Of a stretch of DNA of 64,000 bases, positions 24,880 to 59,723 are shown piece after piece (the first letter of the stretch is position 1; every line of letters begins with the position of its first letter). Source of the stretch: a virus. Taxonomy: Duplodnaviria; Caudoviricetes. The stretch lies in IMG/VR virus record IMGVR_UViG_2920951204_000001, positions 1-64,000 of that record; one strand, 5' to 3'. The translations under genes and the position numbers were made by a program. Under the pieces are notes generated by a model. It saw only the letters and a list, made by a program, of their open reading frames with translations, was not told where the DNA came from and made no database searches.

Positions 24880-24914
24880 ATTTATTTCTCACCTCCAACT
24901 ATATATTCTCTGTT

Positions 24915-25709: not shown

Positions 25710-25766
25710 TTATAATTACCTCCACTTTAATAATCTTCACAAGAAATCGAAAATTCATCGGCTTTT

Positions 25767-27068
25767 TTAAATATTATTAGCCGTTTGTAATGGTATATTC
25801 ACGACTACTGGATGTGAACCTGCATCCACTATCCCATTGGCAAAAGCCTTTGGGAATACCTTCTTCATTATCTGATAACTTCCATTTACGTCTGCATTAA
25901 TATATTCTCCTTTCTCGCTCTGAAATAACCCTCTATGAATTCGTCTATCTTTATTGTAATTTTTCTCAATTGGCTCTTCACCATCAAGAAAAGATGTACC
26001 ACTTGTATAACTTTCATTTGTTCTAATGAACTTAATTCCTTCATTCTCGCATTTATATTCAAGTCTTTGTACAATACTTAAATATGGAATAGATACAAAT
26101 TTCTGATTGACTCTTTTACCCATATCAGTTTCTTGTTTCCATCCTGAGTTATAACCACAAACCAATGTGTCAATATCATTACACTTGCAAAAATCTACTA
26201 CCATCTTTGTTGATTTCTGAATATAGTCATCTACTTGATTATTTCTTTTAGTTGTAAATCTTTGCATCTCATTTGACCAATCGCTATCATTTCTCAGCTT
26301 TAATGCCGATCTTATTTCTGAAATCTTCTTATTATAATACTGATTGATTGACTTCAATGGTTTTCCATTTATTATAATTGGATTTACACCACAGTTTGTT
26401 GTGATGGTCATCAAATTATCGACACCTAAGTCAATTGCAGCAATACTCTTTGAATCTATATCCTTTGTTTCAGGAACTTCTATTTGGTAAACTACTTCCA
26501 TAATATATTCATTACCTTTTGGGACAAATCGAAGCTGTACTAATTTAGAATCATTTGGAATTTTTGTTCTGAAAATATTATTCATGATTTTAAGAGGTGT
26601 CCAACTAAAGTAAATATATCCATCAACAATTTTGAATTTGATATTATCTAATCCAAGTTCAAATCGCCCATCTTCTTTAGGAAGATACTTCGGTAACTTC
26701 GGTCTGCCAAGATATTTAGATGGATTCTTTGAATAGTCCTTAATAGCTGCGAAGAACGACTTCCAGTTCTTATCTAATTTTCTCAAAGTAGCTTGTCCTA
26801 CATTGCTTCCAATACATTTATAACAATCAGATTCTTTACATAATTGAAATAATTCATTGTATTGAATCCAACGAGCATCCTCAACTAATCCTTGTTCTTT
26901 TTGTTTTGAAGTTTCTATAAATTCCTGCCGAATTATGTAATTTCCATAATTATATAAGTTTTTAGATTTCCAACATAAATCATCTATAATTTTGAACAGT
27001 TTATCGTCTTTATTATTTTTCTTACTTTTCTTTATTCGATGTTGTTCTACTCTATTTACTTTCTTCAT
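25767..27068 (-). CDS. tnpB: TnpB-family RNA-guided nuclease, adjacent to CRISPR mini-array
   Basis: SKNLYN, AIDLGVDN (RuvC-I), NESYTS, NADVNG (RuvC-III); no Zn finger; no IS-end hairpins seen. Confidence 0.92.
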   Translation of the reverse strand: MKKVNRVEQHRIKKSKKNNKDDKLFKIIDDLCWKSKNLYNYGNYIIRQEFIETSKQKEQGLVEDARWIQYNELFQLCKESDCYKCIGSNVGQATLRKLDKNWKSFFAAIKDYSKNPSKYLGRPKLPKYLPKEDGRFELGLDNIKFKIVDGYIYFSWTPLKIMNNIFRTKIPNDSKLVQLRFVPKGNEYIMEVVYQIEVPETKDIDSKSIAAIDLGVDNLMTITTNCGVNPIIINGKPLKSINQYYNKKISEIRSALKLRNDSDWSNEMQRFTTKRNNQVDDYIQKSTKMVVDFCKCNDIDTLVCGYNSGWKQETDMGKRVNQKFVSIPYLSIVQRLEYKCENEGIKFIRTNESYTSGTSFLDGEEPIEKNYNKDRRIHRGLFQSEKGEYINADVNGSYQIMKKVFPKAFANGIVDAGSHPVVVNIPLQTANNI

Positions 27069-27078
27069 AAGTTCTCCT

Positions 27079-27240
27079 TAAATTAACATGGTTCTAAAAT
27101 ATATATATAATTCTCCTTCTTCTATCTGAGGTTTATTACCATATAAATTAACATAGTTCTAAAACAGATTATTTAATCCCCTTCAACTGTGCTTTGAGGT
27201 TTATTACCTTGTAAATTAACATGATTCTAAAACCTCAAAT
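27079..27240 (-). CRISPR. Type II-A-like mini-array (2 full and 1 partial repeat, 2 spacers)
   Basis: 35-nt repeats GTTTTAGAATCATGTTAATTTACAAGGTAATAAAC (27233-27199) and GTTTTAGAACTATGTTAATTTATATGGTAATAAAC (27165-27131); partial 27100-27079; spacers 33 and 30 nt; ATTTGAG at 27240-27234. Confidence 0.8.
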
Positions 27241-27410
27241 ATGTATTCGTAATTTACTTGGTATTCTTGAAGTTCTAAGTTCAATGGGCGAAACCCACAC
27301 CCACTATCCAATTGATTTCACTTTTGGAATACTTGTTATAGGATAAACTGGCTTGAATTAGCCAAATAGATTTGTTAAAATAGAACAAATATAGTTTATC
27401 CTATATTTTA
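27241..27410 (-). ncRNA. Putative structured RNA (omega-RNA-like scaffold plus upstream multi-stem)
   Basis: 13-bp inverted repeat 27337-27349/27393-27405 enclosing two hairpins; 27260-27335 resembles the tnpB 3' end with compensatory changes. Confidence 0.6.
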
Positions 27411-27475
27411 TTCTCCGTAGAGCAGATTGTTAGGTCGCCAAACTTGTGCAATCTGTTCTACTGTTTTTATATTCT

Positions 27476-27859
27476 CTACTTTTCAGAAGATTTCTTTAAA
27501 TCTGTTAATGCATCATCTAAATCCTTAACTGTCTGAATAGCTTCCTTCATACTATTCATACCAGCAATAGCACTTGAAAAAGCCTTAATACTTTCAAATT
27601 CCATCTCTGAAATAGTTTTTAAAACATCAACTAATTTCATATCACCAATTCCAGATACCTTTGCTGCATTTTCGATTGTCTCTTCTTCATTTACAAGTAA
27701 ATCAATAAACTGTCTTACCTTATTATTCTCCATTTCTTCAATCTCCTTTATATGTTCTTTTATTTTTTGTTTCCCTACATGACTTGGATAGCCAGAGTAC
27801 GAAAGTGCTTGATTTATCCACCATAATGTCTGTTCATCTACATCATCATATTTCTTCAT
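27476..27859 (-). CDS. Hypothetical protein
   Basis: Lies in the same repeat-bounded unit as tnpB and the array. Confidence 0.6.
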   Translation of the reverse strand: MKKYDDVDEQTLWWINQALSYSGYPSHVGKQKIKEHIKEIEEMENNKVRQFIDLLVNEEETIENAAKVSGIGDMKLVDVLKTISEMEFESIKAFSSAIAGMNSMKEAIQTVKDLDDALTDLKKSSEK

Positions 27860-27991: not shown

Positions 27992-28026
27992 ACTATTTTT
28001 TGACTTTTCTATATATTGTTATTCTC

Positions 28027-28410
28027 TTATTCCCAATCGTAAGCAATGTAATATCCTTCATCAGATAAATGTTTGAACCATTCAAATCTACTTCTCATAT
28101 CAATATTATCAACTTCCTTATTACTCAAAATTTTTTCACAATATTTTGACATGTCGATTGGTTCAATGAGTTTTAATTTATAATCCTTTGAGTCGATCCA
28201 TTCCTCGTTTGGTAATTTAGGGAACGGAACACCAATCGTCTTTTCAAACAATTCTCTTACCAAACTTACATTATAATAAGAATGAGATGTAGAATCGCAG
28301 TCGATATATTTAATTGAGTATTCATCATAATAACAATGTCCAAACGCCTGATATGTTTCACCAGAATCTAATATTTTATAATCTTTAAACCATCTAAATC
28401 CTAAGCCCAT
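28027..28410 (-). CDS. Hypothetical protein
   Basis: SD AGGAGG; single gene between sites 27917 and 28452. Confidence 0.7.
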
Positions 28411-41260: not shown

Positions 41261-43087
41261 TTATCTTAAGTATTCTGTTGGAGACGAACCAATTACTAAC
41301 GATCCTAATCCCCATTGATTACAACATACACAATAACTCATAAATTCTTGTACCATATCATTGGTAATAATATAAAAATCATTCGTCTCTATCGCTTTGT
41401 CTAAAATCCAAAAACATACTTCATAAATTGATTTTGTAATATCCCCATATTTAAATTGTTTATCATATCTGAATGTGAGACTTATATTTTTATAAACAGA
41501 ACCAAAAGCTCCATCATCAACTCTAAACGGAATAGAATAAATCATCTTAATTTCAGATAAAGGTTGTTCTTTTATGTCTGAAATTTTATTCTGAACCATT
41601 TCTCTAATACCATTTTTAGGAATAATTACTTGTCCCCACGAAAATTCAACCTTATCTCGACCTTTATTGAACGGATAATTATCTTTTCTTTCAAATTCAT
41701 GATTAAAACTCAAAAATTTTAATATATCTTGAAACGAATAATATTTTAATTCTTTATCCATTTTATTTTCTCCTTTATTAATTCAAAATCTTACTCAACT
41801 TCTTCACAACTTCTTCGCACAATCTATACAAATAAGTTTTCTCAAATTCTATTTTAAAATTGCCAACAGCCTGTCTATATTGCTGACGTAATTTGTTGTC
41901 TATCATGTTATTCGCCGTCATATAATTTAACTGTTCCATCTGAATTATAGATAGGTGTAATTCCAAATCGATAATCTGATCTTTTTACAAAATACATAAC
42001 TTTAGTATTCTTATCATAGAGAACTTCAGTGCGTTCATCATCTTTATAATCACCTTTATAGATTGTTACTAAATCTATATATTTATTTCCAATATCACTA
42101 TTTTCAGGTTCGATGTCACCTTTAGTACATCCAGTCATTCCAAAACACAATGTTAATCCTAATACAACCGCTAAAATTTTCTTCTTCATATGATTTATTC
42201 ACCCAACTCTTTCAATGCATTAACAAGTTCTGCAAGTCTTGGATTTTCAGGATGCTCCTTTGCCATCTTTTCATATAAAGCAATATTATTCATCTTTTCA
42301 ATCTCAGACTTTAGCTCCTTCTCAATAGAAGCTTTCTGCTTTGCAATTTCTTTCTGACGATTTTCCTCATCAATTCTTGCATTGTATGCGTTCATATTAA
42401 CTACGCCAACAACCTGAGCTGTCACACCTTTACCATATTCTTCGACTGCCTTAATTTCTTTTAAAATTCCAAGAACTCTATTGTCTTTTCCTCTCGCATT
42501 TACAATCAGATATAATGGATGATTGGTATCATACTTAACAATTTCATTAATATCTTCATCATATAAAGCAAATCCATAATCCTTCTTGTTGTAATCATCT
42601 ACCAAATTTACAATCGCCACTTTATTAAATCCTGTCATTTTATTATCCTCACTTTCATCTCTAACAATATCTAATTCACTTCTCTTGAACCAATATAATC
42701 CATTGGAACTTGCTGCATTGTACATTCCATCAATCTGAACCGCTATTGATCCACTTGTAGTTTTAATAACTTGTCCATATAAACCAATAATATTTTCTTC
42801 TCTGTATTTTCTTTTATCAGTATATGTAACTTTTACTCGTTGATTTTGATATTCTTCATAATCGTATATCTTGCTCATCGCATCACCTCCTGCTAATATA
42901 TTCTCCAAAGGAAATCTATGATTCATTAGTTTTCTACATTTTTTAACACATGCCATAATTTATTAGTCGTGTCGTTTTCATCGTCATCGACCACCACAAA
43001 CCCTTTATTTTCAAGGGTTTCAACGACCTCTTTTGCGTCTTTTCCATAATATGCCTTAATTTCAGCTATTTTCTTTAATTTTGCCAT
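41261..43087 (-). other. Hypothetical genes including a small lipoprotein (41908-42189), a 253-aa ORF (42195-42956) and a single-gene unit (42926-43087)
   Basis: Lipobox-like GMTGC; packed ORFs with SDs. Confidence 0.6.
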
Positions 43088-43150
43088 TTTTACCTCTTTT
43101 CTAACCCAATGAAATTCCGCTTTCATGCGAACTTCATGTTATGTTATTCT

Positions 43151-58281: not shown

Positions 58282-58340
58282 ATTTTCTCCTTTTCATATA
58301 ATGAAATCGTCAATTCATGGTATTTTTAAATACCTTTACA

Positions 58341-59555
58341 TTACGCTCTCAGCATAGCCAAGTTAATAATTGTTGGGTGTGAACCTGCACCCTCTATTCC
58401 TTTGCTAAACGCATCAGGAATTACCTTCTTTAATATTTGATATGCTCCATTTACATCTGCATTTATCTTCTTTCCGCAATCTGCAATGAATAATCCTCTA
58501 TGAACTCTGCGTTCCTTATTATAATTCTCTTTTACAGGATCTTCATTATCAAGAAATGATGTTCCAGAAGTACATGCTTCCTCATTTTCTATAAATCTAA
58601 TTCCATTATTCTCACATTTATATGCAAGCATCTGGATAAATAGTTCATAAGGAATATAAGTAAAATTCTGCATACCTTGTTTCTTTTGTTTCCATTCATC
58701 GTTGTGTCCTACAATCAATGTGTCAATTTCATATAAGACACACCAATCAACTACATACTTACTTATACAATGCATCTGATATTTAATCATTTCATATCGC
58801 TTGTCTGTAAGTTTCTGTAACTTGTTCGACCAATCTTTTCCGTTGACTTTCTTCAACTCTGACTGAATATTTGCTTTCTGTTTATTGTAAAACCGATTAA
58901 TTGACTTAATAACTCCACCTTTAACAGCTATTGGATTTTCACCAATGTTGTTTACCATAGTTATGAAATTATCAACTCCAATATCAATGGCAGCTACTCT
59001 TTCAGAAGTTTCTGAAATGTCTGGCACTTCGATTTCATAGACGATTTCCATTACATACTTTTTACATCTAGGAATGAATCTGCATTGTAATATTCTTTCT
59101 TGTGCATTTGTCTTAAACATATTGTTGTATGGTTTAAATGGCTTCCATGCAAAATATACATATCCATCTTTCAATTTCACTTTGTTGCTATCAAGAGATA
59201 GTAAGAATCTTCCGTCTTTATCTTTATATTTTGGAATCTTTGGTCTACCTAAATATTTACTAGGATTTTTCTTCCAATCCTTAATTGCCTTGAAAAATGC
59301 TTTCCAATTTTTATCAAGTATCCTTAAAGTTCCTTGACCTGTATTATTTCCAATATCTTTGTATGGCTCTGACTCTTTTACAAGTTGAAATAATTGATTA
59401 TATTTAATCCAGTTTCCATTATTTATAAATTCTTGACGAATAATATAATTCGCATAGTTGTATAAATTCTTTGACTTGAAACACATTTCATCAACAAATT
59501 TATAAAAATCAGTTCCATACTTTATATTATGCTGTTCACATCTTGTTATTTTCGT
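58341..59555 (-). CDS. tnpB: TnpB-family nuclease, same clade as 25767-27068; non-ATG start
   Basis: Frame extends to ACG-KITRCEQHNIK after AAGGAG; AIDIGVDN, EEACTS, NADVNG. Confidence 0.9.
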   Translation of the reverse strand, partial: TKITRCEQHNIKYGTDFYKFVDEMCFKSKNLYNYANYIIRQEFINNGNWIKYNQLFQLVKESEPYKDIGNNTGQGTLRILDKNWKAFFKAIKDWKKNPSKYLGRPKIPKYKDKDGRFLLSLDSNKVKLKDGYVYFAWKPFKPYNNMFKTNAQERILQCRFIPRCKKYVMEIVYEIEVPDISETSERVAAIDIGVDNFITMVNNIGENPIAVKGGVIKSINRFYNKQKANIQSELKKVNGKDWSNKLQKLTDKRYEMIKYQMHCISKYVVDWCVLYEIDTLIVGHNDEWKQKKQGMQNFTYIPYELFIQMLAYKCENNGIRFIENEEACTSGTSFLDNEDPVKENYNKERRVHRGLFIADCGKKINADVNGAYQILKKVIPDAFSKGIEGAGSHPTIINLAMLRA

Positions 59556-59723
59556 ATCATATCATCTCCTTTCCATAGAAATTATATTGATAACGTTCTA
59601 TAGAGTTATTCTCTCTTCTGACCGCACATTATCAAGAGCTTCGCATCTCCTTCACGGTAACTGTTCAAGGCAGTCAACCCTTTATTCAGTTGTCAATGTT
59701 CAACTGTAATAGGAATTTTCGAG

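Follow-up and report, generated by a model that had tools for sequence, protein, structure and literature searches.

A putative tracrRNA derived from an omega-RNA scaffold in a phage-borne TnpB-CRISPR cassette

In a virus of the Caudoviricetes, a short CRISPR array abuts a tnpB gene, and directly upstream of the array lies a non-coding segment (positions 27241-27410 of the 64,000 nucleotides analysed here, IMG/VR record IMGVR_UViG_2920951204_000001, hereafter the window) that resembles the RNA structure at the 3' end of tnpB. We asked what this segment is. A preliminary description of the locus had proposed, as a speculation, a relocated omega-RNA scaffold that acts like a tracrRNA, and our comparisons support this proposal as far as sequence can, by a covariance-model match and by the fit of a pseudoknot between scaffold and repeat. 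We consider it likely that this segment serves as tracrRNA in a TnpB-CRISPR hybrid carried by the phage, which would be a TranC-type intermediate between transposon and CRISPR. The proposal is also refined, in that scaffold and repeat have a second, longer contact, which is a classical anti-repeat (27263-27250 with 27218-27205).

The window belongs to a low-GC stretch of about 145 kb. As this stretch is embedded in a contig of 340 kb, from a genome of 2.9 Mb, the window seems to be part of an integrated prophage. All elements of the cassette lie on the minus strand, in the 5' to 3' order promoter-like site, hairpin with a 13-bp stem, core, anti-repeat, leader end, mini-array and tnpB (Table 1). 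The candidate -10 element of the scaffold is embedded in GGAGAATA, a one-mismatch copy of the phage-wide motif AGAGAATA, and relatives retain AGAGAATAAAAT at the same position; this site may act as the promoter of the scaffold. The motif AGAGAATA itself occurs 34 times in the window, compared with 7.9 expected, always on the minus (gene) strand and mostly between genes (for example at 27470-27477, 28020-28027 and 24904-24911), and probably functions as a promoter element of the phage. The sequence of the region that comes closest to a sigma-70-like promoter (11/12) is on the plus strand at 27083-27111, inside the array and antisense to it, and may be due to chance in AT-rich DNA. Downstream of the candidate promoter, the 13-bp stem described earlier is indeed perfect, and two small hairpins are predicted to fold within it. 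At this position, 2-5 nt before GTATTC, the hairpin of relatives differs in sequence and length, while the comparison of loci found none there in L089.

Table 1. Positions of the cassette features and of the omega-RNA at the tnpB 3' end (numbering of the window)
Feature	Position	Strand	Remarks
Candidate scaffold promoter	27405-27433	-	-35 CTAACA 27433-27428, -10 TAAAAT 27410-27405; consensus scan 9/12
5' hairpin S0	27337-27405	-	13-bp stem 27405-27393/27349-27337, 100% complementary
Free-standing omega-RNA core (putative tracrRNA body)	27261-27332	-	72 nt; match of model R1; pair counts in 14 loci
Core stem S1	27332-27328 with 27265-27261	-	
Core stem S2	27327-27324 with 27311-27308	-	
Core stem S3	27303-27298 with 27290-27285	-	loop UGGGUUU 27297-27291
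Core stem S4	27284-27280 with 27271-27267	-	
Anti-repeat	27250-27263	-	complementary to 27218-27205 (repeat 1) and to the same part of repeat 2
Leader end ATTTGAG	27234-27240	-	directly 5' of GTTT of repeat 1
Repeat 1	27198-27233	-	36 nt; 5' part type II-A-like; 3' part holds anti-repeat partner (27218-27208) and pseudoknot partner AAACC(T) (27202-27197)
Spacer 1	27166-27197	-	31-32 nt
Repeat 2	27130-27165	-	36 nt; pseudoknot partner AAACC(T) at its end, 27134-27129
Spacer 2	27101-27129	-	about 29 nt, AT-rich
Truncated third repeat	27079-27100	-	5' 22 nt only; runs into Shine-Dalgarno AAGGAG and tnpB ATG
tnpB	25767-27068	-	433 aa; presumed effector
tnpB's own 3' omega-RNA	25740-25884	-	core, hairpin GGCT..AGCC, pseudoknot partner ATGAATTT 25758-25751

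Relation of the free-standing scaffold to omega-RNA

The parallel that had been noticed between the segment and the 3' end of tnpB is confirmed: minus-strand positions 27332-27261 correspond to 25859-25792, and a repeat search of the window gives a 23-nt core with 83% identity. The stem differences reported with it are also present, with CCAA/TTGG in the scaffold against TCCCA/TGGGA at the tnpB 3' end (TTCCT/AGGAA in the second tnpB of the window) and, in another stem, TGGGTG/CGCCCA against TGGATG/CATCCA. A covariance-model scan, proposed in the preliminary description, was done with model R1, which was built from 35 omega-RNA cores at the 3' ends of tnpB genes of the family (alignment A2) and contains no free-standing copies. 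The named stems of A2 co-vary, with 80% of cells paired and 12 pairs changed on both sides, compared with 36-57% of cells paired in slid controls. Run over the window, this gene-embedded model matched the scaffold at 27261-27364(-) with 27.9 bits (rough E 0.0028), in addition to the 3' ends of the first tnpB (108 bits) and of the second (85 bits), and gave no further match with E < 1 beyond these three places. Scaled to the whole 2.9-Mb genome, the scaffold match has an E of about 0.13 and is borderline; a genome-wide R1 search at E 0.1 returned only the two gene-embedded omega-RNAs and not the scaffold copy, which was also missed at E 0.01 when nhmmer was run with the tnpB 3' end as a single query sequence. 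A gathering-threshold Rfam scan of the window found one tRNA elsewhere and nothing more. R1 also matches the upstream scaffold copies of related loci, and the decisive support for a scaffold above chance is comparative: about 20 contigs of related phages have this element at the corresponding position.

We also considered how the scaffold and the repeat together relate to a complete omega-RNA. Model R2, built from the scaffold and repeat 1, has this one site alone in the host genome (158 bits) and matches, over its full length, single-molecule omega-RNAs of bacterial IS-type relatives (up to 51 bits, E 1e-6). The matches begin at GTATTCC and, in seven of the nine checked, end exactly at TAACCT, where the flanks diverge. 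As R2 thus matches whole single-molecule omega-RNAs and ends at the guide junction, scaffold and repeat are, on this alignment, an omega-RNA with its last hairpin opened, that is, a split omega-RNA. By the same collinearity, the anti-repeat corresponds to the 5' strand of the last hairpin, the 3' third of the repeat to the 3' strand of this hairpin plus the pseudoknot partner, and the spacer to the guide position. The scaffold is not copied from the 3' end of the tnpB that it accompanies; its loop and partner are nearer to the GGGUUA:UAACCU type of the IS-type relatives.

Another explanation, raised with the first description of the segment, is that it is simply a decayed second tnpB 3' end, an inert relic of a former tandem copy of the gene. 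Stop codons in the old frame of the copy would agree with this, as would the occurrence, in related phages, of orphan omega-RNA scaffolds without a gene. The comparison of loci contradicts it, because the region that separates the array from the upstream gene retains no similarity to TnpB at the protein level, yet the stems are compensated in 14 loci, across TnpB relatives of 70-96% identity. Moreover, the scaffold always comes with an array of variable spacers, its position relative to the array is constant, and an anti-repeat that changes along with the repeat has been added to it. We regard a relic as highly improbable.

Two contacts between scaffold and repeat

Alignment A1 contains 14 distinct array-linked loci, in which the structure (S1-S4, the anti-repeat:repeat helix and the pseudoknot) was named by hand and the pairs were then counted. 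Results showed that 93.7% of cells are paired, dropping to 35-53% when the 3' partners are slid, and that 10 pairs are changed on both sides, compared with 5.1 +/- 1.4 in shuffles. The compensatory changes are mostly in S2 and S3, with one in S4; RNAalifold alone recovered S2 and S3 and not the other helices.

The scaffold contacts the repeat twice, by an anti-repeat of 11-14 bp and by a pairing between a loop and the repeat end. In the window, the anti-repeat pairs with repeat 1 at 12 of 14 positions and with repeat 2 at 13 of 14, including one G-U. Over A1, 79% of the cells of this helix (helix 6) pair and four pairs are changed on both sides. The duplex energies in the 14 loci range from -6.5 to -13.3 kcal/mol (z -0.8 to -4.7); the helix is AU-rich, and in L162, L091, L092 and L086 the z of just -0.8 to -1.2 is not clearly above shuffled sequence.

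The loop contact had been described from the window itself, where GGGTTT (27296-27291) is complementary to the AAACCT that ends both full repeats (27202-27197 and 27134-27129), and it was found as described. As GGGUUU:AAACCU is nearly invariant within the array-linked group, these loci alone cannot test the pseudoknot, which is supported instead by the wider family. In 88 distinct S3 hairpins, the six final bases of the loop were compared with the registered downstream 6-mer, and loop and partner change together in the classes GGGUUA:UAACCU, GCGUUA:UAACGU, GUGUUA:UAACAU, CAUUUA:UAAAUG, GGUUCA:UGAAUY and GGUUUA:UAAAUU, to which the free-standing copies add one more, GGGUUU:AAACCU. Loops scored 5.27 with their own partner and 4.92 +/- 0.04 when permuted, with 0 of 300 permutations reaching 5.27, while unrestricted loop-versus-tail duplex energies of 35 omega-RNAs were not significant (158 of 2000 permutations). 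In bacterial IS-type relatives, the S3 loop is GGGUUA and the omega-RNA ends with a long AU-rich hairpin, 2-3 bases and TAACCT, after which the flanks diverge. The GGGUUU:AAACCU contact fits this family-wide co-varying pseudoknot, whose partner stands directly before the guide in the IS-type relatives. The ISDra2 omega-RNA, too, is known to contain a pseudoknot (PMC13639567). In the predicted fold, scaffold and first repeat can also pair in cis, as a natural single guide.

The array, its targets and the host type II-A system

Many TnpB relatives of 70-98% identity were found in gut-type metagenomes and among IMG/VR contigs 100-190 kb long. In about 20 contigs of large phages, with TnpB proteins 70-96% identical, scaffold, mini-array and tnpB follow each other in this order (loci with this order include L083-L096, L100, L112, L135, L162-L170, L197 and L198). 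In 10 of 14 loci the flanks differ from those of the window on both sides; therefore, the three parts travel as one cassette. As in TranC, the array, which has two full repeats and a truncated one (27233-27079), lies next to the effector, and the spacers vary over the approximately 20 loci; repeats are kept while spacers differ between loci, some spacers being common to several arrays. The truncated repeat that runs into the tnpB start is present in all related loci. At 59% identity, L097 (2195-2500) has the same layout with a very different 5' part of the repeat, GTTGCAAC..., and an end that still reads ..TAACCT, suggesting that lineages may swap the 5' part and retain the end derived from omega-RNA. 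Spacer 1 occurs as well in two related metagenome arrays that have another second spacer. Strict spacer gain at the leader end was rejected as a rule: L091/L095/L112 and L084/L096 fit it, and L092/L094 and the window/L197 differ at the trailing end.

Spacers 1 and 2 have no target in the host genome, the fetched related loci or GenBank phages, and spacer 1 has none in IMG/VR; a scan of JGI metagenomes returned related arrays only and no target of spacer 1, and four further spacers from relatives gave self matches only. Exact protospacers in contigs of other phages were found for three spacers of relatives, involving two unrelated genes. One protospacer is present in 12 contigs, near a major head protein gene, and two lie 40 nt apart in a small tyrosine-recombinase (integrase-family) gene (L200:1659-1757), where they are matched by spacers of different phage arrays (L092/L094 and L095/L135). 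Each of the three has AAC immediately on its 5' side, a motif that comes from three protospacers only and whose last C may belong to the repeat; in two of them it extends to CCAAAC, and the 3' flanks are unrelated. A 5' flanking motif is what TnpB and Cas12 enzymes read.

These spacers bear on the possibility that the segment is a cis-acting leader and nothing else, either a fixed omega-RNA-like guide or a TnpB-binding 5' UTR that regulates tnpB, with no role in trans and with the later repeats as by-products. Such a leader would agree with the uninterrupted run of scaffold, anti-repeat and repeat 1, which can form a single folded molecule collinear with omega-RNA, with the overlap of the last repeat and the ribosome-binding site, and with the presence of a single spacer in several relatives. 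However, second and third spacers exist and turn over, the full repeats keep both contact sites, and two of the three phage-targeting spacers follow the second repeat in at least one array, for example the trailing spacer of L091/L095. A role restricted to cis is in our opinion unlikely.

The beginning of the array resembles a different type of CRISPR. ATTTGAG before GTTT is the conserved leader-repeat junction of type II-A Group 1 (PMC5382924), and the phage array has this leader end followed by a 36-nt repeat starting with GTTT, as a type II-A array does. The junction of the host's own II-A array is AATTTGAG followed by GTTTGAG. The host type II-A locus is complete (G000:C10:105650-113470), with cas9 at 105807-109853, csn2 at 111068-111721 and 26 repeats, and its tracrRNA lies upstream of cas9 on the opposite strand.

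An array with such a junction might serve the host Cas9, like other virus-borne mini-arrays, the scaffold then being unrelated to guides. The host possesses cas9, csn2, a tracrRNA and the 26-repeat array; the phage repeat has 36 nt, of which 24 (67%) are identical to the host II-A repeat, the spacers have about 30 nt, and the truncated repeat is exactly the 5' 22 nt expected in a Cas9 crRNA. With 24/36 positions, the phage repeats are nevertheless neither identical nor near-identical to those of the host. The host tracrRNA forms a duplex of -21.6 kcal/mol with the host repeat, whereas the phage repeats (-6.2 to -8.2) stay at the level of shuffled sequence (-5.9 +/- 2.3), and no Cas9-type tracrRNA that would pair with the repeat was found in the cassette. 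In addition, the three protospacers have a common 5' flank and no 3' PAM, the conserved part of the repeat is its 3' third, which Cas9 does not need and which matches the omega-RNA end, and tnpB and scaffold are joined to the array in every case. Service to the host Cas9 is therefore very unlikely.

We propose only tentatively, and as an idea that may well prove wrong, that the repeat is a chimera with which one CRISPR type writes a memory that a transposon nuclease reads. Considering that the leader end and the 5' part of the repeat mimic a II-A junction, the host Cas1-Cas2-Csn2 could install new spacers in the phage array; considering that the 3' third of the repeat is an omega-RNA tail, TnpB and not Cas9 would read them.

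The effector, a possible mechanism and known systems

The array-linked TnpB has the Pfam domains OrfB_IS605 and Cas12f1-like_TNB. Its RuvC residues D213, E352 and D393 are intact and invariant among 26 relatives, and zinc-finger cysteines were not found in its sequence. A profile search against solved structures gave CnCas12f1 (8J12, 1e-10) and ISDra2 TnpB (8H1J, 5e-8); the profile was needed, as phmmer had no match among them. Like TranC effectors, the protein is TnpB-like, with an intact RuvC site and without large domain insertions. The second tnpB of the window (58341-59486) is 54% identical to it and has no array. The start of this second gene is apparently lost at 59540-59580 (-), where an ATG and an in-frame stop stand in an A-run and the N-terminal homology carries on in another frame; a frameshift, a sequencing error or slippage could explain this.

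The omega-RNA at the 3' end of the array-linked tnpB seems complete. It has the canonical arrangement, in which scaffold and tnpB 3' end overlap and flanking DNA provides the guide, while the free-standing copy is non-coding, lies upstream of the gene and is followed by the array. As this 3' omega-RNA is intact in all array-linked relatives, non-coding tail included, we infer a possible second, fixed guide, as reported for TranC; since the gene keeps its own 3' omega-RNA, the array is not the sole possible source of guides for this TnpB. The tails of both gene-embedded omega-RNAs of the window, which are non-coding, read ATGAAT-N5-RTTTY (25743-25758 and 58303-58318, minus strand), and tail-like sites are also present at 42911-42926 and 43105-43125 (-), the copy at 42911 without tnpB. 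Complete-looking orphan omega-RNAs, with core, hairpin and ATGAAT partner but no preceding tnpB, occur between genes of related phages (L089:1786-1855, minus strand, and L162:5144-5260, plus strand).

For the TnpB-CRISPR hybrid, the following mechanism can be proposed. One minus-strand transcript, probably starting near 27398, would contain the 5' hairpin, the S1-S4 core, the anti-repeat, the mini-array and the tnpB mRNA, and would be processed into guides. The 3' third of a repeat would supply the 3' strand of a 'guide-adapter' hairpin, paired with the anti-repeat, while the 5-6 nt pseudoknot partner AAACC(U) at the repeat end would pair with the S3 loop GGGUUU. The spacer downstream of the repeat would then take the guide position of an omega-RNA. 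Repeat 1 could act as a cis-folded natural single guide, and later repeats would have to pair in trans. Assembled with such an RNA, TnpB, with its intact RuvC site, would cut DNA bearing the 5' flanking motif, and the likely targets would be competing phages. The route by which spacers are acquired could be that proposed above for the chimera.

A system of this kind is already known, from TranC and from the type V-U variants (Altae-Tran et al. 2023, PMC10691335). TranC systems (Jin et al., Cell 2025) are transposon-CRISPR intermediates that include the phage-borne CauTranC9 (PMC13565253, PMC13639567, bioRxiv 10.64898/2026.03.27.714800), and a 'functional RNA split' has been described for them (PMC13639567, bioRxiv 10.64898/2026.03.27.714800). 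As in TranC, a TnpB-sized effector stands beside a short CRISPR array without adaptation genes and retains its own 3' reRNA, and some TranC are phage-borne with phage-targeting spacers. The guide of the present cassette is likewise split, as far as computation can tell, into a tracrRNA (reRNA-derived scaffold plus anti-repeat) and a crRNA. Unlike in those accounts, the array here abuts the start codon, the putative tracrRNA adjoins repeat 1 at the end of the array that faces away from the gene, and the leader end and the 5' part of the repeat are type II-A-like. The bioRxiv report (10.64898/2026.03.27.714800) describes a tracrRNA search between effector and array that gave no consistent tracrRNA outside TranC clades 3 and 11. 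Compared with the account of TranC clade 9 (Caudoviricetes), our proteins have 409-433 aa against an average of 414 and our repeats 36-37 bp against 38, figures that indicate compatibility of size only. What looks unusual here is a tracrRNA beyond the array combined with a II-A-like leader and repeat start; a further variant feature is that each part is mapped onto a co-varying family omega-RNA.

Other known systems share fewer features with the cassette. The canonical IS200/IS605 omega-RNA (ISDra2; the IS-type loci L006, L008 and L012) has the same core stems, pseudoknot logic and terminal hairpin, with ..AACCU and then the guide, and R2 aligns to it over the full length; however, it is one molecule over the gene 3' end that takes its guide from the flank of the element, whereas the scaffold here is non-coding and upstream, with guides from an array. 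Cas12f (type V-F) gives the best relatives of solved structure by profile (8J12, 7WJU) and is also alike in its tracrRNA with an anti-repeat, its spacer 3' of the repeat and its 5' PAM. Cas12f differs in having enlarged REC and WED domains and often cas1/cas2/cas4, while the protein here is TnpB-sized, is an OrfB_IS605 protein and is 54% identical to an ordinary tnpB product of the same prophage. Virus-borne mini-arrays (PMC11656645, PMC6858448) resemble the array in their 1-3 spacers, host-like repeats, lack of cas genes and virus-matching spacers, but their repeats are identical to those of the host, on whose effectors they rely; here the repeat is 67% identical and unpaired with the host tracrRNA, and the cassette has an effector and a putative tracrRNA of its own.

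In conclusion, this locus provides a candidate tracrRNA for a phage lineage of TnpB-sized effectors, and the 433-aa effector is very compact, which may be of practical interest for genome editing. Each piece of the CRISPR guide could be traced to transposon RNA, with the anti-repeat:repeat duplex derived from the terminal hairpin and the final bases of the repeat from the pseudoknot partner. The II-A-like leader offers a testable idea on the source of spacers in orphan arrays and, if the repeat is truly chimeric, it would represent one concrete route by which a TnpB guide RNA may gain an array.
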